DNA of 64,000 nt from Escherichia phage vB_VIPECOOM01, in the sequence record OQ721909. One strand, written 5' to 3'. The first letter of the stretch is position 1. The number at the start of each line of letters is the position of its first letter. The position numbers were made by a program, and so were the translations under genes. The notes under the pieces were generated by a model. That model saw only the letters and a list, made by a program, of their open reading frames with translations, did no database searches and was not told where the DNA came from. Of this stretch, positions 4,606-55,150 are shown in pieces.

Positions 4606-5736
4606 TTATGGATAGGTATAGATGATACCAGTTTCTAAAGCAGTTTTATGAATGATGTATCCATTACGCGATTCTTGAACATCAACTTCCGGATAGTCTT
4701 TCATCATCTTCTGAAGAGTGTAACGATGCAAGTAGTACTTACTATCTGGGTCGTCAGTTTTCCAATCTTTACCTTCTTCAGTCATTTTTTGGATTTCATC
4801 CATAACCCACCAACCGCACCAGATATAAGCTGAAGTACGATGTGGAAGAGGATGAACATAAGGTAATTCACCTTCTGGTTCCGGAGCAACTTTATCAGTT
4901 ACCTGAACTTGACCTGTTGTTTTAACTGTTTTGCTATCATAGTCAGTTGCTGTAACGACAGCAGTAACTTCAATAGTTTGACTTCCAACAGATGAGGTAT
5001 CGATAGTATATACGTTAGTTGACCCTTCTACAGGAGAAGAATCTTTCTTCCATGAGTAAGTAATTTGTGCTGCGTCAGGTGCGCCAGTAACATTAGCAGT
5101 AAATGTAGCCGAAGCATCTTGCTGAACGTTAATAGAAGGAGGAGTCAATGTAACCTGTGGATTCATTGTCTTCTTATTAACCGTCAATGATACTTCATTA
5201 GAAGTAACTTCCTTTGCATCATAATCTGTCGCGGTTACTTGAGCTACGCATTTAATTCTTTTTACTCCACTTGTAGTTGGAGTATAGCTAAATGTAGCGG
5301 AAGTTGCTTCACTAACAGGAGAATCATCTACATGCCACTGATATGTAGCAGATGCACCTGATGGTTGAGAAGCTAAGACAGCAGTAAATTCAACAGGAGT
5401 TCCAATTACTCCAGCAGCAGGACTAGCAGGAGTTACAGCTAAGGTAGTTGTCTGTGTCTTATTTTGAACTGTGATAGTTGTAGAAGCTTCTGCTGTTTCA
5501 GCCTCAGCTTCTGGAACTGTGTTTGTTGCAACTACTTTAATAGTCTTTTGACCGGCAGGTCCTTTTAGTACATAACTAAAAGTTGCTTCAGTTCCATCTT
5601 GTGGAACATCATCTACAGTCCAAGCATAGGTAATAGTTCCACCTCCAGTTTCACCACTGGGTGTAGCAGTAAACTGCTGAGTCTGATCTATAACTCCAGT
5701 AGGTGTTTTAGGAGTTATATCAACTGTAAAAGCCAT
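4606..5736 (-). CDS. hoc: Hoc, highly immunogenic outer capsid protein
   Basis: 376-aa ORF with tandem Ig-like repeats and a conserved C-terminal capsid-binding segment (PYVHPLPHR...WCGWWVMDE) as in T4 Hoc. Confidence 0.9.
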   Translation of the reverse strand: MAFTVDITPKTPTGVIDQTQQFTATPSGETGGGTITYAWTVDDVPQDGTEATFSYVLKGPAGQKTIKVVATNTVPEAEAETAEASTTITVQNKTQTTTLAVTPASPAAGVIGTPVEFTAVLASQPSGASATYQWHVDDSPVSEATSATFSYTPTTSGVKRIKCVAQVTATDYDAKEVTSNEVSLTVNKKTMNPQVTLTPPSINVQQDASATFTANVTGAPDAAQITYSWKKDSSPVEGSTNVYTIDTSSVGSQTIEVTAVVTATDYDSKTVKTTGQVQVTDKVAPEPEGELPYVHPLPHRTSAYIWCGWWVMDEIQKMTEEGKDWKTDDPDSKYYLHRYTLQKMMKDYPEVDVQESRNGYIIHKTALETGIIYTYP

Positions 5737-44960: not shown

Positions 44961-47900
44961 ATGGCCGAGATTAAAAGAAAGTTCAGAGCAGAAGACGGTC
45001 TGGACGCAGGTGGCGATAAAATAATCAACGTAGCTTTAGCTGATCGTACCGTAGGAACTGACGGTGTTAACGTTGATTACTTAATTCAAGAAAACACAGT
45101 TCAACAATATGATCCAACTCGTGGATATTTAAAAGATTTTGTAATCATTTATAATAATCGTTTTTGGGCAGCAACGGATAATATTCCAAAACCTGCTGGA
45201 AGTTTTAATAGAATTCGTTGGAAAGCATTACGTACTGATGCCGTATATACAACCGTATCATCTGGACCATATCAATTAAAATCCGGAGAAGCAATTTCAG
45301 TAGATACATCAGTTGGTAATGACATTGAGTTTAATTTACCACCTTCTCCGCTTGATGGAGAAACCGTAATAATTCAAGATATTGGTGGAAAACCTGGTAT
45401 AAATCAGGTTAAAATAAATTCTTCAAATCAGAGTATTGTTAATTTTAGAGGTGAACAAGTACGTTCAGTTCTAATGACTCATCCAAAGTCACAGATGATA
45501 TTCATTTTTAATAATCGTTTGTGGCAAATGTATGTTGCTGATTATAGCAGAGAAGCTGCGATTGTTACTCCATCGACTGCATATCAAGCACAATCTAATG
45601 ATTTTATCGTGCGTAGATTTACTTCCGCTGCGCCGATTAATATTAAACTTCCGAGATTTGCTAATCATGGCGATATTATTAATTTCGTTGATTTAGATAA
45701 ATTAAATCCACTTTATCATACAATTGTCACAACATATGATGAAACAACTTCAGTACAAGAAGTTGGAACTCATTCTATTGAAGGCCGTACATCGATTGAC
45801 GGTTTCTTGATGTTTGATGATAATGAAAAATTATGGAGATTGTTTGACGGGGATAGTAAAGCACGTTTACGCATTATAACGACTAATTCAAACATTCGTC
45901 CAAATGAAGAAGTTATGGTATTTGGTGCGAATAATGGAACAACTCAAACAATTGAGCTTCAGCTTCCAACTAATATTTCTGTTGGTGATACTGTTAAAAT
46001 TTCCATGAATTACATGAGAAAAGGACAAACAGTTAAAATCAAAGCTGCTGGTGAAGATAAAATTGCTTCTTCAGTTCAATTGCTGCAATTCCCAAAACGC
46101 TCAGAATATCCACCTGAAGCTGAATGGGTGACTGTTCAAGAATTAGTTTTTAACGGTGAAACTAATTATGTTCCAGTTTTACAACTTGCTTATATAGAAG
46201 ATTCTGACGGAAAATACTGGGTTGTACAGCAAAACGTTCCAACTGTTGAAAGAGTCGATTCTTTAAATAATTCTACTAGAGCAAGATTAGGCGTAATTGC
46301 TTTAGCTACACAAGCCCAAGCTAACGTCGATTTAGAAAATTCTCCACAAAAAGAATTAGCAATTACTCCAGAAACATTAGCTAACCGTACTGCTACAGAA
46401 ACTCGCAGAGGTATCGCAAGAATAGCAACTACTGCTCAAGTAAATCAGAACACTACATTCTCTTTTGCTGATGACCTTATCATCACTCCTAAAAAGCTGA
46501 ATGAAAGAACTGCTACAGAAACTCGCAGAGGTGTTGCTGAAATTGCTACGCAGCAGGAAACTAATACAGGTACTGATGATACTACAATCATCACTCCTAA
46601 AAAGCTTCAAGCTCGTCAAGGTTCTGAAACATTATCGGGTATTGTAACTTTTGTATCTACCGCAGGAGCTACTCCAGCTTCTAGTCGTGAATTAAATGGT
46701 ACAAATGTTTATAATAAAAATACTAATAATTTAGTTGTTTCGCCTAAAGCTTTGGATCAGTATAAAGCTACTCCAACACAGCAAGGTGCAGTAATTTTAG
46801 CAGTTGAAAGTGAAGTAATTGCTGGACAAAGCCAAGAAGGATGGGCAAATGCGGTTGTAACGCCAGAAACGTTACATAAAAAGACATCAACTGATGGAAG
46901 AATTGGTTTAATTGAGATTGCTACGCAAAGCGAAGTTAATACAGGAACTGATTATACTCGTGCAGTCACTCCTAAAACTTTAAATGACCGTAAAGCAACT
47001 GAAAGTTTAAGTGGTATAGCTGAAATTGCTACACAAGTTGAATTCGACGCAGGTGTCGACGATACTCGTATCTCTACACCATTAAAAATTAAAACCAGAT
47101 TTAATAGTACTGATCGTACTTCTGTTGTTGCTCTATCTGGATTAGTTGAATCAGGAACTCTCTGGGACCATTATACCCTTAATATTCTTGAAGCAAATGA
47201 GACACAACGTGGTACACTTCGTGTAGCTACACAAGTTGAAGCTGCTGCAGGAACATTGGATAATGTTCTAATAACTCCTAAAAAGCTTTTAGGTACTAAA
47301 TCTACTGAAGCGCAGGAAGGTGTTATTAAAGTTGCAACTCGGTCTGAAACTGTAGCTGGAACGTCAGCAAATACTGCTGTATCTCCAAAAAATTTAAAAT
47401 GGATTGTGCAGAGTGAACCTACTTGGGCAGCTACTACTGCGATAAGAGGTTTTGTTAAAACCTCATCCGGTTCAATTACATTCGTTGGTAATGATACAGC
47501 TGGTTCTACGCAGGACTTAGAACTATATGAGAAAAATAACTATGCAGTATCACCATATGAATTAAACCGCGTATTAGCAAATTATTTGCCGTTAAAAGCA
47601 AAAGCTGTAGATAGTAATTTATTAGATGGTTTAGATTCACTCCAGTTCATTCGTAGGGATATTGCGCAGACGGTTAATGGTTCACTAACCTTAACGCAAC
47701 AAACGAATCTGAGTGCCCCTCTTGTATCATCTAGTACTGCTACGTTTGGTGGATCAGTTTCGGCAAATAGTACATTAACTATTTCTAATACTGGAACGGC
47801 AACTCGTCTGATTTTTGAAAAAGGGCCTCAAACTGGGACGAACCCAGCTCAAACGATGACAGTCAGAGTGTGGGGAAATCAATTCAGCAGTGAATCGGAC

Positions 47901-48830
47901 ACAACACGTTCTACTGTATTTGAAGTTAGTGATGAAACGTCTAGTCACTTTTATTCTCAGCGCAATAAAGCTGGTAATATAACATTTAATATAAACGGTA
48001 CAGTAACGCCGATAAATGTGAATGCTTCAGGAACATTGAATGCGAATGGCGTTGCAACATTCGGTAGTTCAGTTACTGCTAATGGCGAATTTATCAGTAA
48101 ATCATCGAATGCTTTTAGAGCAATAAACGGTGATTATGGATTCTTTATTCGTAATGATGGTGCTAACACCTATTTTATGCTTACTGCATCTGGTGATCAG
48201 ACCGGTGAATTTAATGGATTACGTCCTTTATCTATTAATAATGCATCTGGTCAAGTAACGATTGGTGAAAGCTTAATCATTGCCAAAGGTGCTACTATAA
48301 ATTCAGGCGGTTTGACTGTTAACTCGAGAATTCGTTCTCAGGGTACTAAAACATCTGATTTATACACCCGTGCCCCAACATCTGATACTGTAGGATTCTG
48401 GTCAATAGATATTAACGATTCAGCCACTTATAACCAGTTCCCGGGTTATTTTAAAATGGTTGAAAAAACTAATGAAGTGACTGGACTTCCATACTTAGAA
48501 CGTGGCGAAGAAGTTAAATCTCCCGGTACATTGACTCAGTTTGGTAACACACTTGATTCGCTTTACCAAGATTGGATTACTTATCCAACTACCCCAGAAG
48601 CGCGCACCACTCGCTGGACACGCACATGGCAGAAAACCAAAAACTCTTGGTCAAGTTTTGTTCAGGTATTTGATGGGGGTAACCCTCCTCAACCTTCGGA
48701 TATAGGAGCGATCCCATCTGATAACGGAATAATAGGTAATCTTACTATTCGTGATTTCTTGCGAATTGGTAATGTTCGCATTATTCCTGACCCAGTGAAT
48801 AAAACTGTTAAATTTGAGTGGATTGAGTAA
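44961..48830 (+). CDS. 34: Long tail fibre proximal subunit gp34
   Basis: 1289-aa ORF MAEIKRKFRAEDGLDAGGDKIINVALADRTVGTDGVNVDYLIQ with internal ~40-aa tandem repeats; same size as T4 gp34. Confidence 0.95.
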   Translation: MAEIKRKFRAEDGLDAGGDKIINVALADRTVGTDGVNVDYLIQENTVQQYDPTRGYLKDFVIIYNNRFWAATDNIPKPAGSFNRIRWKALRTDAVYTTVSSGPYQLKSGEAISVDTSVGNDIEFNLPPSPLDGETVIIQDIGGKPGINQVKINSSNQSIVNFRGEQVRSVLMTHPKSQMIFIFNNRLWQMYVADYSREAAIVTPSTAYQAQSNDFIVRRFTSAAPINIKLPRFANHGDIINFVDLDKLNPLYHTIVTTYDETTSVQEVGTHSIEGRTSIDGFLMFDDNEKLWRLFDGDSKARLRIITTNSNIRPNEEVMVFGANNGTTQTIELQLPTNISVGDTVKISMNYMRKGQTVKIKAAGEDKIASSVQLLQFPKRSEYPPEAEWVTVQELVFNGETNYVPVLQLAYIEDSDGKYWVVQQNVPTVERVDSLNNSTRARLGVIALATQAQANVDLENSPQKELAITPETLANRTATETRRGIARIATTAQVNQNTTFSFADDLIITPKKLNERTATETRRGVAEIATQQETNTGTDDTTIITPKKLQARQGSETLSGIVTFVSTAGATPASSRELNGTNVYNKNTNNLVVSPKALDQYKATPTQQGAVILAVESEVIAGQSQEGWANAVVTPETLHKKTSTDGRIGLIEIATQSEVNTGTDYTRAVTPKTLNDRKATESLSGIAEIATQVEFDAGVDDTRISTPLKIKTRFNSTDRTSVVALSGLVESGTLWDHYTLNILEANETQRGTLRVATQVEAAAGTLDNVLITPKKLLGTKSTEAQEGVIKVATRSETVAGTSANTAVSPKNLKWIVQSEPTWAATTAIRGFVKTSSGSITFVGNDTAGSTQDLELYEKNNYAVSPYELNRVLANYLPLKAKAVDSNLLDGLDSLQFIRRDIAQTVNGSLTLTQQTNLSAPLVSSSTATFGGSVSANSTLTISNTGTATRLIFEKGPQTGTNPAQTMTVRVWGNQFSSESDTTRSTVFEVSDETSSHFYSQRNKAGNITFNINGTVTPINVNASGTLNANGVATFGSSVTANGEFISKSSNAFRAINGDYGFFIRNDGANTYFMLTASGDQTGEFNGLRPLSINNASGQVTIGESLIIAKGATINSGGLTVNSRIRSQGTKTSDLYTRAPTSDTVGFWSIDINDSATYNQFPGYFKMVEKTNEVTGLPYLERGEEVKSPGTLTQFGNTLDSLYQDWITYPTTPEARTTRWTRTWQKTKNSWSSFVQVFDGGNPPQPSDIGAIPSDNGIIGNLTIRDFLRIGNVRIIPDPVNKTVKFEWIE

Positions 48831-48838
48831 GAGGTATT

Positions 48839-49954
48839 ATGGAAAAATTTATGGCAGAGTTTGGACAAGGATACGTCCAAACGCCATTTTTATCGGAAAG
48901 TAATTCAGTAAGATATAAAATAAGTATAGCGGGTTCTTGCCCGCTTTCTACAGCAGGACCGTATGTTAAATTTCAGGATAATCCTGTCGGAAATCAAACA
49001 TTTAGCGCAGGTCTTCATTTAAGAGTTTTTGACCCTTCAACAGGAGCATTAGTTGATAGTAAGTCATATGCTTTTTCTACTTCAAATAATACTACATCAG
49101 CTGCTTTTGTTAGTTTCATGAATTCTTTGTCAAACAATAGACTTGTTGCTATATTAACTAGCGGAAAGGTTAATTTTCCTCCTGAAGTGATATCTTGGTT
49201 AAGGGGAGCAGGAACTTCAGTTTTTCCATCAGATTCAGTATTGTCAAGATTTGACGTATCATATGCTGCTTTTTATACTTCTTCTAAAAGAGCTATTGCA
49301 TTAGAGCATGTTAAACTAAGTAATAGAAAAAGCACAGATGATTATCAAACTATTTTAGATGTTGTATTTGATAGTTTAGAAGACGTCGGAGCTACGGGAT
49401 TTCCTAAAAGAACATATGAAAGTGTCGAGCAATTTATGTCAGCGGTTGGTGGAACTAATAACGAAATTGCGCGATTGCCAACTTCAGCTGCTATAAGTAA
49501 ACTATCTGATTATAATTTAATTCCTGGCGATGTTCTTTATCTTAAAGCACAGTTATATGCTGATGCTGATTTACTTGATCTTGGAACTACAAACATATCC
49601 ATTCGTTTTTATGATGCATCAAATGGATATATTTCCTCTACCCAAGCTGAGTTTACTGGGCAAGCTGGGTCTTGGGAATTAAAGGAAGATTATGTAGTTG
49701 TTCCTGAAAATGCAGTCGGATTTACTATATATGCGCAGAGAACTGCTCAAGCTGGTCAAGGCGGAATGAGGAATTTAAGCTTTTCTGAAGTATCAAGAAA
49801 TGGCGGCATTTCAAAACCTGCCGAATTTGGCGTCAACGGTATTCGTGTTAATTATATCTGTGAATCGGCTTCACCTCCAGATATAATGGTACTTCCTACA
49901 CAAGCCTCTTCTAAAACTGGCAAAGTGTTTGGGCAAGAATTTAGAGAAGTTTAA
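48839..49954 (+). CDS. 35: Tail fibre hinge protein gp35
   Basis: 371-aa ORF between genes 34 and 36; same size and position as T4 gp35. Confidence 0.85.
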   Translation: MEKFMAEFGQGYVQTPFLSESNSVRYKISIAGSCPLSTAGPYVKFQDNPVGNQTFSAGLHLRVFDPSTGALVDSKSYAFSTSNNTTSAAFVSFMNSLSNNRLVAILTSGKVNFPPEVISWLRGAGTSVFPSDSVLSRFDVSYAAFYTSSKRAIALEHVKLSNRKSTDDYQTILDVVFDSLEDVGATGFPKRTYESVEQFMSAVGGTNNEIARLPTSAAISKLSDYNLIPGDVLYLKAQLYADADLLDLGTTNISIRFYDASNGYISSTQAEFTGQAGSWELKEDYVVVPENAVGFTIYAQRTAQAGQGGMRNLSFSEVSRNGGISKPAEFGVNGIRVNYICESASPPDIMVLPTQASSKTGKVFGQEFREV

Positions 49955-49959
49955 ACTGA

Positions 49960-49984
49960 GGGAGCCTTCGGGTTCCCTTTTTCT
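49960..49984 (+). terminator. Rho-independent terminator after gene 35
   Basis: GGGAGCC-TTCG-GGTTCCC hairpin (UUCG loop) followed by TTTTTC. Confidence 0.6.
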
Positions 49985-49985
49985 T

Positions 49986-49993
49986 TATAAATA
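49986..49993 (+). promoter_or_regulatory. T4-type late promoter (TATAAATA) for gene 36
   Basis: TATAAATA 24 nt upstream of the gene 36 ATG, right after the terminator. Confidence 0.55.
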
Positions 49994-50016
49994 ATATTAA
50001 AATAAAGGGGCATATA

Positions 50017-50673
50017 ATGGCTGATTTAAAAGTAGGTTCAACTGTGGGTGGATCTGTCATTTGGCATCAAGGAAATTTTCCATTGAATTCAGCCGGTGAC
50101 GATGTACTCTACAAATCATTTAAAATATATTCAGAATATAATAAACCGCAGGCAGCTGATAACGATTTCGTTTCTAAAGCTAATGGCGGTACGTATTTAA
50201 ATAAAGTAATTTTTAATAAAGGAATGACTGTTCCTGGTGCAGGGTCAGGTGACAATGGTATTTTTGCTGGTCCTGGTGATAATGCCACGTATGATACTAC
50301 AAATATGGATATTGTTTCGTGGTATGGTATTGGTTTTAAATCATCACAGGGTTCAGCGGGTAGAACTGTAGTAATTAACACGCGAAATGGAGATATTAGC
50401 TCAAAGGGTGTAATTGAAGCATCACAAATACGCGCAACTTCATTATCACCAGTAAATAATTATGACCTTACACGGAAAGATTATGTTGATGGAGCAATAA
50501 ATATTGTTACAGCAAACGCAAACTCTAGAGTATTACGCTCTGGAGACACTATGACAGGAAATTTGACTGCGCCAAACCTTTTTTCACAGAATCCTGCATC
50601 TCAACCTTCACATGTTCCACGATTTGATCAAATTGTTATTAAGGATTCTGTTCAAGATTTCGGCTATTATTAA
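50017..50673 (+). CDS. 36: Long tail fibre distal connector gp36
   Basis: 218-aa [47 protein letters not shown]; matches T4 gp36 (about 221 aa). Confidence 0.88.
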
Positions 50674-50681
50674 GAGGACTT

Positions 50682-53630
50682 ATGGCTACTTTAAAACAAA
50701 TACAATTTAAAAGAAGCAAAACCGCAGGTCAACTTCCTGCTGCTTCAGTATTAGCCGAAGGTGAATTGGCTATTAATTTAAAAGATAAAGCAATTTTCAC
50801 AAAAGATGATTCAGGCAATGTTATAGAATTAGGTTTAAAATATGGAGGAACAATTGATGGTTCTTTAACTGTTAATGGAAATATAACTGGAACTTTAATT
50901 GGAAATTCTAGCACAGCTACTAAATTGCAAACACCTAGGAAAATTAATGGTATATCCTTTGATGGGTCAAAAGATATCACGCTAACTCCATCTGACATAA
51001 ATGTCAATAGCACAACGTTTATAAAAAATAACGGCGAATTACCGGTTGATGCTAATTTAGATGAGTATGGGCCTGTTGAAGAATATCTTGGGGTTTGGTC
51101 GAAATCTACTTCAACAAATGCGCAACCGGCAAATAAATTCCCAGAAGAAAATGCCGTAGGTGTACTAGAAGTATTTGTGGCCGGTCAATTTGCTGGTACT
51201 CAGAGATATACTGTAAGATCTGGTAACGTATATGTTCGATCTTTGTCTGCTAAATGGAACGGTGTTAACGGTCCGTGGGGAGTTTGGCGTAATGTTCAAG
51301 CGTCAACTCGTCCACTTTCACAAACGATTGACCTTGATAGCTTGGGAGAATTAGAACATTGCGGCTTATGGCGAAATAGTTCAAGTGCTATTGCATCATT
51401 TGATCGCCATTATCCAGAAGAAGGATCAGCCGCACAAGGATTTTTAGAAATATTTGAAGGTGGTTTATACACGAGAACGCAGCGATATACTACCCGCATG
51501 GGTATGGTTTATACTCGTTGTCTCGCTGCCGCATGGGATGCTAGCGCACCCAAGTGGGAGGAATGGAAGCAGGTTGGTCATGGCACACCAGCGACTTTTT
51601 ATGATGGAGATCTGAATGATTTTAAAACTCCTGGGTTATATAATATTTTAGGCACTGATGCCGTTATTAATTGCCCTACAGGTGAAGGTTTACCAGCCGT
51701 TATTGTTGGTTTGCTAGAAGTTAAACAGCGTGCTTCTGGTGGTGCTATTTTCCAAAAATTTACTACTGCCGGAACGGGTGAAACTACTCGCGATCGTATT
51801 TTTGAGCGTGCATATACTGGTGGTGCGTGGGGTGCATGGAACGAAGTATATACATCTTATTCTCTGCCAATTACTTTGGGTATGGGTGGTATTAAAGCTC
51901 AATTATCGGAGTTAGATTGGCAAACCTTTGATTTTGTTCCTGGTAGTATGTTTAGCGTTCCTTTGAACAAAATAAAGAATATGCCAGCAAATATGGATTG
52001 GGGCACGATTGATGGAAACCTGGTTATGTTTTCCGTTGGTCCTAGCGAACATACTGGCACAGGACGTACTGTTCAGGTTTGGCGTGGTACTGTATCCCAG
52101 ACAAACTACCGTTATTTTGTTGTGCGTATAGCTGGAAATCCAGGAAACAGGACTAACACTTGTCGCCGTGTTGTTCTTGAAGACGGATCACATACTTGGA
52201 CTGCTCAACAAAACTTTAGGGGATTGCTAAATATCACCGCTGATATTAATCTTGGTGCTAATAAGAAAATTTCAATTGCTCCGGGAGCATATATTCAAGG
52301 CCCTGCTAGCGGTTCTGGTTCAAATACTTACGCAAATCAGAATACTACTATTGCGCCATTATATCAGGCCATTGACGATTCAAATAAAAACCAGTTTGCT
52401 CCTATTGTAAAACAGAAAAACACTGTAACAAATATTACTATGGCTTCTGGTATGGATATTGCTAGTTCAGAATATCGTATCATTGCTCAAGGTGATTTAT
52501 CCGCTACTGGAACTACAGCTAATGAATTAGCTACATGGCGTTTCTTGCCGTCTGGCCGATTCATGTCACAAAGTCGAGTTTATGCTGGCGCAGCATTCTT
52601 GAACACTGATGGTAACATTGCTGGTTCAATCTGGAAGAAATACAACGATGCAACCAACTTAGACGCTGCTTTGAATACTCGCGTAGGTAAAAGCGGTGAT
52701 ATTATGACCGGACGCTTGACAATTCAAAGCCCAGGTGATTCTATTGTATTATCAGCACCTGCTAGTAATTCTTTGCATATTCGTGGTGACGTAGACGGGA
52801 CTGGTAACTGGTATATTGGTAAGGGTGGTGATGATAATGGATTAGCGTTCTATAGTTATGCTACTAATGCTGGTGTATACATTACAAACGCAGGAGATAT
52901 CACGCTAAGTCCAAAAGGCGTCGAAATGGCTCATGTCAATAACATTCGATTATATGTTCATGGTGAACGTTGGACCGCTAGTCAACCAGGTGATTGGGGC
53001 AACCAATGGCGAGTAGAAGCGCCAATATTCGTCGATCATGGTTATGTTGGATCAGATAGCTATTATCCAATTATTAAAGGAAGAAGTGTAGTCACCAATC
53101 AAGGGTTTGTAACTGCCGTCGATCTTGGTATTCGTCGTGTCCCTAATAATTGGGGACAAGCAATTATTCGTGTTGGATCTGCGGAGGCATCGCCAGCGGC
53201 TGGACACCCTAACGCGGTATTTGAATTTCATTACGACGGTACTTTCTATTCTCCTGGTAATGGTAACTTTAACGATGTGTATATTCGTTCCGATGGTCGA
53301 CTTAAGATCAATAAAGAAGAGTTAGAAAACGGAGCACTTGAAAAAGTATGCCGACTGAAGGTTTATACATACGATAAGGTTAAGTCTATTAAAGATCGTA
53401 GTGTTATTAAACGTGAAGTTGGTATTATTGCTCAGGATCTTGAAAAAGAATTACCGGAAGCTGTGTCTAAAGTTGAAGTTGATGGATCTGATGTTCTGAC
53501 AATTTCTAACTCCGCTGTGAATGCTCTTTTAATTAAGGCTATCCAAGAAATGAGCGAAGAAATTAAAGAATTAAAAACGCCTTTCTTCACTAAAATTGCT
53601 CGCAAAATTAGTAATTATTTTAAATTCTAA
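50682..53630 (+). CDS. 37: Long tail fibre distal subunit gp37 (T2-type, with C-terminal chaperone-like domain)
   Basis: 982-aa ORF; conserved gp37 N-terminus [37 protein letters not shown]; ends in [15 protein letters not shown]...[14 protein letters not shown], resembling intramolecular-chaperone (S74-type) fibre domains. Confidence 0.9.
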
Positions 53631-53662
53631 CAACAAGGGGCTTTGCCCCTTTGGAGAAAATT

Positions 53663-54463
53663 ATGGCAGTAGTTGGTGTTCCCGGTTGGATTGGAAGTTC
53701 ATCTGTAAATGAAACAGGACAACGATGGATGAGTCAAGCGGCTGGTCAATTAAGATTGGGTGTTCCTTGCTGGATGAGCCAATTCGCCGGACGCTCAAGA
53801 GAGATTATTCATACCGTAACAGCAAACCATAACTTTAATGGTCAATGGTTCCGCGACCGTTGCTTTGAAGCTGGCGGTGCACCCATTGTATTCAATATTG
53901 TTGGTGATATCGTTTCTTATTCTAAAGATGTGCCACTTTTCTTTATGTATGGGGATACGCCTAATGAATATGTTGTTCTTAATATTCATGGCGGTGTTCA
54001 TATGTGGGGTCGTGGTGGTAATGGTGGATACACTCACTCAGGAGGCGACGGTAACGGTACACAAGGCGGTCATGTTATTCAAAATGATATCGGTGGACGG
54101 CTTCGTATTTGGAACTACGGTGTTATAGCTGCTGGCGGTGGTGGTGGTGGCGGTATTGCATATCGTCCACACTCAGGGGCAAACTGGCAAGATATCGGTG
54201 GCGGTGGCGGTCGACCTTTCGGTGGTGCTGGCGGTGGCGGTTATTCCGGTGGTGCTGCTTCGTATGAAGGTCCGGGTGGTGGTTATGACTATGGTAACGC
54301 ACACTCCGGCGCAGGCGGTAATGCTGGTGCTGCTGGTCAGAATGCATGGTATGACGGCGGTAAAGTTCTTAAAGTTGGTGTTGGTGGTGCGTCTGGTCAT
54401 GCAGTGTTTGGATCTTCTCCAACTTGGGGTGCTGTTGGAACAATTTACGGACCAAGAGTATAA
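53663..54463 (+). CDS. 38: gp38 receptor-recognising adhesin (T2-type, glycine-rich motifs)
   Basis: ATG at 53663 with a GGAG RBS (track starts at TTG 53651); N-terminus [51 protein letters not shown] followed by poly-Gly motifs separating variable segments. Confidence 0.85.
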
Positions 54464-54493
54464 TTTGAATAAATATCCTTAAAAGGAGGGTCT

Positions 54494-55150
54494 ATGGCAG
54501 CACCTAGAATATCATTTTCGCCCTCTGATATTCTGTTGGGTGTTCTAGATCGCTTGTTCAAAGATAATGCTACCGGGAAAGTTCTTGCTTCCCGGGTAGC
54601 TGTCGTAATTCTTTTGTTTATAATGGCGATTGTTTGGTATAGGGGAGATAGTTTCTTTGAGTACTATAAGCAATCAAAGTATGAAACATACAGTGAAATT
54701 ATTGAAAAGGAAAGAAATGCACGCTTTGAATCTGTCGCCCTGGAACAACTCCAGATAGTTCATATATCATCTGAGGCAGACTTTAGTGCGGTGTATTCTT
54801 TCCGCCCTAAAAACTTAAACTATTTTGTTGATATTATAGCATATGAAGGAAAATTACCTTCAACAATAAGTGAAAAATCACTTGGAGGATATCCTGTTGA
54901 TAAAACTATGGATGAATATGCAGTTCATTTAAATGGACGTCATTATTATTCAAACTCAAAATTTGCTTTTTTACCAACTAAAAAGCCTACTCCCGAAATA
55001 AATTACATGTACAGTTGTCCATATTTTAATTTGGATAATATCTATGCTGGAACAATAACCATGTACTGGTATAGAAATGATCATATAAGTAATGACCGCC
55101 TTGAATCAATATGTGCTCAGGCGGCCAGAATATTAGGAAGGGCTAAATAA
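54494..55150 (+). CDS. t: Holin T
   Basis: 218-aa ORF MAAPRISFSPSDILLGVLDRLFKDNATGKVLASRVAVVILLFIMAIVWYRG with a single TMD and large periplasmic domain; matches T4 T. Confidence 0.95.
   Translation: MAAPRISFSPSDILLGVLDRLFKDNATGKVLASRVAVVILLFIMAIVWYRGDSFFEYYKQSKYETYSEIIEKERNARFESVALEQLQIVHISSEADFSAVYSFRPKNLNYFVDIIAYEGKLPSTISEKSLGGYPVDKTMDEYAVHLNGRHYYSNSKFAFLPTKKPTPEINYMYSCPYFNLDNIYAGTITMYWYRNDHISNDRLESICAQAARILGRAK

Follow-up and report, generated by a model that had tools for sequence, protein, structure and literature searches.

The g37-g38 region of Escherichia phage vB_VIPECOOM01 raises the question of how the tip of its long tail fibre is assembled and which host receptor it recognises. 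The DNA analysed here, referred to as the window, is a stretch of 64,000 nucleotides from this phage (record OQ721909). Its T-even long-tail-fibre locus occupies positions 44961-55150, where open reading frames and Pfam matches give the gene order g34-g35-g36-g37-g38-t. The region is best read, with a probability of roughly 0.93, as the module that forms the distal tip of the long tail fibre in a Tequatrovirus and belongs to the Ox2/T6/T2 'gp38-adhesin' type, working through the assembly and host-range steps proposed below.

Gene Order and Transcription Signals

Over the g37-g38 stretch, the window and Escherichia phage vB_VIPECOOM03 (Tequatrovirus; record OQ721911) are 100% identical; in that record, g37 is annotated as the long tail fibre distal subunit. 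The sole paper on that phage is a genome announcement (PMC10508110). The features of the module are collected in Table 1.

Table 1. Features of the g37-g38 tip module and its boundary (window coordinates).
Feature	Position	Strand	Description and basis
g37, long tail fibre distal subunit	50682..53630	+	ORF, 982 aa plus stop
Predicted autocleavage site R869^S870 in VYIR^SDGRLK	53286..53291	+	Motif alignment to S16 site
Peptidase_S74 intramolecular chaperone domain of gp37	53289..53627	+	aa 870-982, 113 aa, extreme C-terminus
Small GC hairpin AGGGGC-UUU-GCCCCU	53636..53650	+	Between g37 stop and g38 Shine-Dalgarno
g38, receptor-recognising adhesin	53663..54463	+	266 aa plus stop; Pfam, PDB homologues, Ox2 identity
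gp38 N-terminal attachment domain, W9/W22/W37	53663..53788	+	aa 1-42, Pfam Gp38_N
Recombination junction, a51/T6-like 5' part to Ox2-like specificity block	53950..53975	+	Identity shift, maximum chi-square
gp38 specificity block	54008..54397	+	GRM1 GRGGNGG (aa 116-122) through GVGGASG (aa 239-245), hypervariable segments between
Gene t (holin)	54494..55150	+	Pfam Phage_holin_T E=3e-117; downstream boundary of module

A search of the tail-fibre locus for T4 late promoters (TATAAATA) finds them upstream of g34 and g36 only. Because no late promoter lies directly 5' of g38, this gene is probably co-transcribed with g36-g37. A terminator and promoter scan calls no terminator around g38, and the single sigma-70-like site that it detects there is located at the g38 stop. 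The hairpin in the g37-g38 spacer, which is not called as a terminator, has a minimum free energy of -14.5 kcal/mol that is not significant on folding (z = -1.6), and it may be incidental.

The C-Terminal Chaperone Domain of gp37

gp37 is described as trimeric (PMC3157838; PMC6851490), and residues 693-736 of the window protein match the Pfam gp37_trimer family. Its last 250 residues, chaperone domain included, share 96% identity with Ox2 gp37. A preliminary description of this DNA had likened the gp37 C-terminus to the self-cleaving chaperone domains of other phage fibres. The C-terminal peptides that it quoted are found in the 982-aa ORF at 50682-53630 (+), and the likeness is borne out by a Peptidase_S74 match, a Ser/Lys pair and homology to S16 gp37 (6F45). 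When the C-terminus is compared with Peptidase_S74 (PF13884) using Pfam, residues 870-928 match profile positions 1-57 of 58 with E=1.1e-11 and 45.2 bits (cut-off 22). A phmmer search with the gp37 tail retrieves 6F45_A (S16 gp37) at E=1e-4 and the tail fibre 8JOV at E=0.026; the comparison with the MYRF ICA domain 7DC3 is not significant (E=0.86).

The domain opens at Ser870 (53289), five codons beyond codon D865 at 53275, where the stretch singled out in the preliminary description begins. In the Peptidase_S74 domain family, a Ser/Lys(i+5) dyad is catalytic (PMC3742443), and the gp37 domain fits this dyad, with serine as its first residue (S870) and lysine five residues downstream (K875). 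Residues S870, D871, R873 and K875 do not vary among six gp37 tails (window, Ox2, T6, T2, fFiEco06 and 215Ecol030PP), and the S-D-x-R-x-K motif is kept in tails down to 45% identity (T2). Cleavage of S16 gp37 occurs at DLNVS^SDRRIKK, which has been aligned with DVYIR^SDGRLKI, the string found in the window gp37 (PMC7917993). Judged from these sequence features, the C-terminal domain of gp37 very likely self-cleaves in this phage.

gp38 as a Predicted Receptor-Recognising Adhesin

The start of g38 is the ATG at 53663, with GGAG upstream at 53653-53656, whereas a TTG at 53651 marks just the mechanical start of the ORF. The gene closes at 54463, where the stretch singled out in the preliminary description also ends. 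Two Pfam families match the protein, GP38 (E=3.2e-66, 223.7 bits) and Gp38_N (E=1.4e-19, 70.2 bits), both scored with a cut-off of 25 bits; like the Peptidase_S74 match in gp37, these cannot be put down to chance. Residues 38-266 align with the receptor-binding domain of PP01 gp38 (PDB 9V85, E=4e-61) and residues 5-263 with S16 gp38 (PDB 6F45_D, E=3e-43), while 256 of 266 residues (96%) are identical to Ox2 gp38 (X05675). Together with an alignment of eight sequences, these matches uphold the earlier proposal that gp38 is an adhesin with a conserved N-terminus followed by glycine motifs and variable segments.

Three tryptophans of the N-terminal domain, W9, W22 and W37, are invariant in eight homologues, including T2, and align with the tryptophans of S16. 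In the published structure, gp38 is a monomer with a polyglycine-II sandwich, and its tryptophans act as prongs inserted into pockets of gp37 (PMC6851490). A single-sequence AlphaFold2 model of the window gp38 reaches a mean pLDDT of 32.6 and is unusable; the fold is therefore assigned from the sequence, through homologues with solved structures. By homology to 6F45_D and 9V85, gp38 is predicted to adopt the polyglycine-II sandwich fold.

From these elements, an order of assembly can be proposed. gp37 would form a trimeric beta-helical fibre, aided by its own C-terminal 113-aa Peptidase_S74 chaperone domain. Once the trimer is complete, the Ser870/Lys875 dyad would cut between R869 and S870 and release this domain, and the freshly exposed trimer tip would then be capped by a single gp38 molecule. 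The N-terminal three-helix domain of gp38 would seat W9, W22 and W37 each in one of three equivalent gp37 pockets. The glycine-rich motifs are expected to form the polyglycine-II sandwich, from which the variable segments would protrude as loops for binding an outer-membrane protein. Host range may then evolve through point changes in the loops and through homologous recombination in the conserved sequence next to the specificity block.

Mosaic Structure of g38

Recombination has left a visible trace in g38. Positions 53631-53949 show 0 mismatches in 319 nt to phage a51. To Ox2, by comparison, the g37-g38 spacer and the 5' 290 nt of g38 are only 71-86% identical (85.7% within g38); the allele is thus a recombinant. 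From 53950 to 54463 the pattern is reversed, with 97.3% DNA identity to Ox2 and about 52% to a51 and T6. T6 g38 itself is 96-100% identical to the window as far as GRM1. Maximum chi-square analysis places the breakpoints at 53951 (Ox2), 53975 (a51) and 54025 (T6, inside GRM1). This clean a51/Ox2 junction provides a further natural example of the whole specificity block being swapped as a single unit.

The preliminary description had regarded the GGN-repeat DNA as a likely substrate for recombination or slippage. Recombination is supported by the sharp mosaic junction, although its placement at the repeats holds only in part: the junction in the window lies about 55 nt upstream of GRM1, the first of the glycine motifs, in a conserved stretch that is not glycine-rich, and the T6 breakpoint alone falls within a glycine motif.

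Receptor Specificity

Since the specificity block shares 97% identity with its counterpart in phage Ox2, OmpA is favoured as the receptor and is the most likely candidate on sequence grounds; the loops of OmpA are bound by Ox2 and K3 in a study that distinguishes 'type 1' and 'type 2' OmpA classes (PMC12032242). Within this block, three amino acids differ from Ox2, namely N174 (K in Ox2), G193 (R in Ox2) and Y230 (S in Ox2). All four variable segments equal those of Ox2 save for two residues. Ox2 itself reportedly becomes fully infective only when it can use more than one receptor (PMC3157838). Among the 36 gp38 records at least 95% identical to the window protein, Ox2 is the only one from a phage with published receptor data.

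The three substitutions (K174N, R193G and S230Y) might instead redirect recognition to another porin or to LPS, or broaden it to include one of these, which is possible but rather unlikely. A single gp38 change, Q206L between RB51 and RB68, switches the receptor from OmpF to OmpW (bioRxiv 10.64898/2026.04.02.716166), host-range mutants of Ox2 offer a precedent as cited in PMC12892980, and two of the three differences do sit in variable segments. Moreover, gp38 proteins at least 97% identical are found in phages whose recorded hosts include Shigella, Yersinia and even Pseudomonas. Against such a shift, the remaining sequence of the four variable segments is that of Ox2, and two systematic studies find that phages with similar gp38 share a receptor (PMC12032242; bioRxiv 10.64898/2026.04.02.716166). 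The allele is also common in natural coliphages, with nine records at 99% identity or more. OmpA remains the favoured receptor assignment.

There is a small chance that this widespread natural recombinant, which joins an a51/T6-type attachment half to an Ox2-type specificity block with N174, G193 and Y230, reads other OmpA loop variants than laboratory Ox2 does, or reads an extra receptor. If true, such an altered range of OmpA variants or receptors could have helped near-identical gp38 to spread among phages recorded on E. coli, Shigella and Yersinia. In practical terms, the adhesin sequence names OmpA as the likely receptor of a phage that has been put forward for therapy.

Glycine Motifs and Length Variation

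Glycine makes up 38% of gp38 residues 110-250, with runs at G158-164, G179-183 and G190-193. In the alignment of eight gp38 sequences, down to 48% identity, the glycine motifs are invariant and keep a constant length, and substitutions and all indels fall between them. This agrees with the published architecture of GRM and HVS elements, in which the glycine motifs are strictly conserved (PMC3157838).

Replication slippage that alters the number of glycine codons is a very improbable main diversifier of the adhesin. The GGN triplet runs on which it could act are indeed present in g38, including seven Gly codons at 54133-54154, four of them perfect GGT, with TRF scores of 30-81; however, these direct repeats are short (13-30 nt) and imperfect. 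Since none of the aligned homologues differs in length within the glycine motifs (0 indels, with variation by substitution only) and the literature describes these motifs as strictly conserved, the slippage part of the earlier proposal is unsupported.

Relation to Known Tail Fibre Systems

The tip module as a whole is already known (PMC3157838, PMC7917993, PMC6851490). Processing of T2 gp37 was published in 1986 and the design of glycine motifs and variable segments in 1987-89 (PMC3157838); the Ox2 form of the adhesin was sequenced in 1987, recombination at conserved motifs followed in 1998, and the S16 structure in 2018. As a discovery the module carries little weight, with an identical stretch already deposited and both design and structure already in the literature.

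Among known systems, the nearest is Ox2 (X05675; Henning laboratory, 1987-1991), which has a gp38 of the same 266 aa and the same gene order 37/38/t. The window differs from it in the a51-type sequence of the spacer and the 5' 290 nt of g38 and in the three specificity-block residues.

In T2-type tips, gp37 is processed and then capped by gp38 (PMC3157838, which cites Drexler 1986 for T2 gp37 processing). T2 and T6 share the architecture of the window, with Peptidase_S74 at the gp37 C-terminus. The module had been labelled T2-type, and this label holds for the architecture; the allele is specifically Ox2-type (96%), as identity to T2 gp38 reaches no more than 48% and T2 uses the receptors OmpF/FadL (PMC3157838). 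T6 has the N-terminal half of gp38 in common with the window but differs in the specificity block (about 51% DNA identity) and in its receptor, Tsx (PMC3157838).

The S16 tip complex (PDB 6F45; Dunne et al. 2018) resembles the window in its 113-residue C-terminal gp37 IMC with the S-D-x-R-x-K motif. According to the account in PMC7917993, which cites Dunne 2018, autocleavage of this IMC exposes the gp38 docking surface. Three Trp prongs, a beta-helix and a polyglycine-II sandwich characterise the structure of S16 gp38 and are predicted for the window gp38 by sequence homology. S16 is far more distant than Ox2, as the E-values for gp38 (3e-43) and the gp37 tail (1e-4) indicate, and its loops and its Salmonella host differ.

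T4 shares the position of the locus and the proximal fibre parts gp34-gp36. Unlike the window, its gp37 bears its own receptor-binding tip, and its gp38 is an unrelated 183-aa assembly chaperone (PMC6851490). That the window gp38 is likewise a mere assembly chaperone, with the receptor-binding site in gp37, is extremely improbable and is rejected: g38 does occupy the place that gene 38 has in T4, and a homologue with 99% identity is named 'distal long tail fiber assembly catalyst' in one database record, but BLASTP against T4 gp38 gives a best E=9.3 (no detectable similarity), T4 gp38 lacks Pfam GP38, T4 gp37 has Collar and Phage_fiber instead of Peptidase_S74, and almost the whole of the window gp38 is homologous to adhesins whose structures were solved at the fibre tip. 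The departure from the T4 arrangement that the preliminary description pointed out is evident in these domain and similarity differences.

Among more remote relatives, the Peptidase_S74 domains of endosialidases and MYRF belong to the same family, share the Ser/Lys(i+5) dyad and likewise stand C-terminal to a trimeric beta-helix. The domain in the window is carried by a tail-fibre shaft, not by a sialidase or a transcription factor, and by analogy its removal from gp37 would also create the docking site for a separate adhesin.

Organization of the locus

The region belongs to the standard T-even long-tail-fibre locus. The preliminary description had placed a T2-type host-range module at 53275-54463, from five codons ahead of Ser870 (53289) of gp37 to the g38 stop codon, and the peptides it quoted are found in the gp37 translation. 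The analysis supports this interpretation and refines it in three respects: the gp37 chaperone domain and the gp38 adhesin are present, but the allele belongs to the Ox2 type and not to the T2 type in particular; the recombination junction lies also in a conserved flank; and slippage is without evidence. The ATG of g38, at 53663, is preceded by GGAG at 53653-53656. Escherichia phage vB_VIPECOOM03 (OQ721911, Tequatrovirus), represented in the literature by a genome announcement only (PMC10508110), is 100% identical across the g37-g38 stretch, and its record annotates g37 as long tail fibre distal subunit and g38 as host-specificity tail fibre protein. In the hinge protein gp35, aa 58-120 match Pfam ILEI (interleukin-like EMT inducer, PF15711; E=3e-8, 34.4 bits, cut-off 27), an unexpected family name for such a protein.

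Genes of the long-tail-fibre locus and segments of the g38 mosaic, with identity to three phages
Feature	Coordinates	Strand	Product	a51	T6	Ox2
g34	44961-48830	+	1289 aa			
g35	48839-49954	+	371 aa			
g36	50017-50673	+	218 aa, Pfam Phage_T4_gp36			
g37	50682-53630	+	982 aa			
Spacer	53631-53662	+		100%	100%	70.6%
g38	53663-54463	+	266 aa			
g38 5' part	53663-53949	+		100%	95.8%	85.7%
Stretch ahead of specificity block	53950-54024	+		70.7%	98.7%	97.3%
Specificity block	54025-54463	+		51.8%	51.3%	97.3%
t (holin)	54494-55150	+	218 aa, Pfam Phage_holin_T, E=3e-117			

Mosaic structure of g38

Comparison with Ox2, T6, a51, UGKSEcP2, G2540, 215Ecol030PP, and T2 reveals a sharp mosaic, in agreement with the proposed recombination. 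Phage a51 shows no mismatch over 53631-53949 (0/319 nt), and maximum chi-square analysis places the breakpoints at 53951 (Ox2), 53975 (a51), and 54025 (T6). These identity switches and breakpoints show that the attachment half of the g38 allele is of a51/T6 type and is fused to a specificity block of Ox2 type (the glycine-rich motifs, GRMs, and the hypervariable segments between them), all variable segments of which have been transferred together as one unit. Movement of the block as a whole is in line with Tetart et al. 1998 and Trojet et al. 2011, the latter reporting 14 chimeras with no exchanges between GRM1 and GRM5 (PMC3157838). The suggestion that glycine-repeat DNA is the site of recombination holds in part: the T6 breakpoint lies within the first glycine motif (GRGGNGG, 54008-54028), but a junction is also present at conserved flanking sequence. 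The glycine-motif DNA consists of short imperfect direct repeats. Its slippage, also suggested earlier, finds no evidence among eight aligned homologues, in which the glycine motifs are constant in length and every indel falls in the variable segments.

Mosaicism extends into the 3' part of g37, where the best match (~100%) passes from T6/UGKSEcP2 (52800-53140) to G2540/Ox2 (53080-53320), while a51 and 215Ecol030PP fall to 53-60% identity near 52900-52990. This fine-scale mosaicism (52800-53320) occupies the tip region upstream of the chaperone domain.

The gp38 adhesin

Gp38_N (aa 1-42, E=1e-19) and GP38 (aa 47-266, E=3e-66) together cover approximately the whole of gp38, which also matches the PP01 gp38 receptor-binding domain structure 9V85 (E=4e-61) and, over aa 5-263, Salmonella phage S16 gp38 (6F45_D, E=3e-43). 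It shares 256 of its 266 residues with Ox2 gp38 (X05675). Starting at aa 116, the sequence alternates between conserved glycine motifs and variable segments as previously described, exactly as in Trojet et al. 2011 (PMC3157838), with glycine making up 38% of aa 110-250. The expected contrast with the T4 arrangement is borne out, BLASTP finding no similarity to T4 gp38 (E=9.3). A single-sequence AlphaFold2 model was unusable (pLDDT 32.6).

In S16, three Trp 'prongs' fix monomeric gp38 on the gp37 trimer (PMC6851490); W9, W22, and W37, invariant across the eight homologues, are their counterparts. The DNA of this N-terminal domain (53675-53800) contains internal direct repeats (53675-53691/53759-53775, 82%; 53726-53755/53771-53800, 70%). 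Because these encode repeated Trp-containing units, such as GVPGWIG and RWMSQAAG, they suggest that the three-pronged, pseudo-threefold attachment domain may have originated by internal duplication.

The gp37 chaperone domain

A profile search with hmmscan, the kind of check called for in the preliminary description, confirmed the auto-chaperone likeness of the gp37 C-terminus: aa 870-928 match Peptidase_S74, the 'chaperone of endosialidase' family (E=1.1e-11, 45.2 bits vs a cut-off of 22, 57/58 profile positions). The last 129 aa match the S16 gp37 chain of 6F45 (E=1e-4) and tail fibre 8JOV (E=0.026); the match to the MYRF autocleavage domain (7DC3) is weaker and non-significant (E=0.86). This Pfam domain is likewise C-terminal in gp37 of T2 and T6, whereas T4 gp37 lacks it.

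Autocleavage at DLNVS^SDRRIKK removes the last 113 residues of S16 gp37, the intramolecular chaperone, and uncovers the surface on which gp38 docks; the same study aligns this site with DVYIR^SDGRLKI (PMC7917993), a string found exactly in the gp37 described here. The predicted released fragment (aa 870-982) likewise has 113 aa. In this family, the catalytic dyad consists of the domain's initial Ser and a Lys five positions further on (PMC3742443), here S870 and K875. The predicted cleavage-site motif is unchanged in the six aligned tails (this phage, Ox2, T6, fFiEco06, 215Ecol030PP, and T2), including that of T2, whose overall identity is no more than 45%. For T2 gp37, proteolytic processing was described by Drexler et al. 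in 1986 (cited in PMC3157838).

Proposed mechanism and precedents

Homology points to a four-step mechanism in this phage. The gp37 trimer would form with the assistance of its own chaperone domain, after which the Ser870/Lys875 dyad would cut the R869-S870 bond. A single gp38 would then be placed on the exposed tip via its three Trp, and its polyglycine-II core would hold the variable loops out to OmpA. Every element of the module is already established in the literature, through gp37 processing (1986), the Ox2 adhesin gene (1987), the glycine-core/loop model (1989), recombination at conserved motifs (1998), modular analysis (2011), crystal structures (2018, 2026), and receptor prediction from gp38 sequence (2025-2026).

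Transcription and spacers

Late promoters of the T4 type (TATAAATA) precede g34 (44919) and g36 (49986); none was found directly ahead of g38. A GC-rich hairpin (AGGGGC-UUU-GCCCCU, 53636-53650), whose fold is statistically not notable, separates the stop codon of g37 from the Shine-Dalgarno of g38; it might reduce g38 expression relative to g37, the fibre requiring three gp37 to one gp38. Its spacer is fully shared with T6 and a51 and only 71% identical in Ox2.

The otherwise identical OQ721911 carries a 127-nt tandem duplication (49861-49992 vs 5053-5311 of the OQ721911 stretch L001) spanning the g35 3' end to the g36 late promoter, the TATAAATA copy at 49986 being included. The g35-g36 spacer is consequently 189 nt there and 62 nt here, the latter spacing recurring in a51, UGKSEcP2, G2540, and 215Ecol030PP. 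The duplication could be an assembly artefact of the record or real.

Receptor

Ox2, the sole phage with near-identical gp38 for which published receptor data were found, reportedly binds extracellular loops of OmpA (PMC12032242). The assignment of OmpA as receptor is the least certain step of the proposed mechanism: three specificity-block residues differ from Ox2 (positions 174, 193, and 230) and a single gp38 substitution can switch receptors (bioRxiv 10.64898/2026.04.02.716166). Nine deposited records carry the same gp38 allele at >=99% identity, so that it is a common natural form. A 97%-identical gp38 occurs in Yersinia phage PYps5T (MT828552) and in the Tequatrovirus-sized record 'Pseudomonas phage PsgM02F' (OR584013). 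The latter lists Pseudomonas coronafaciens pv. garcae as its host, a surprising label for a phage with an adhesin of Ox2 type.
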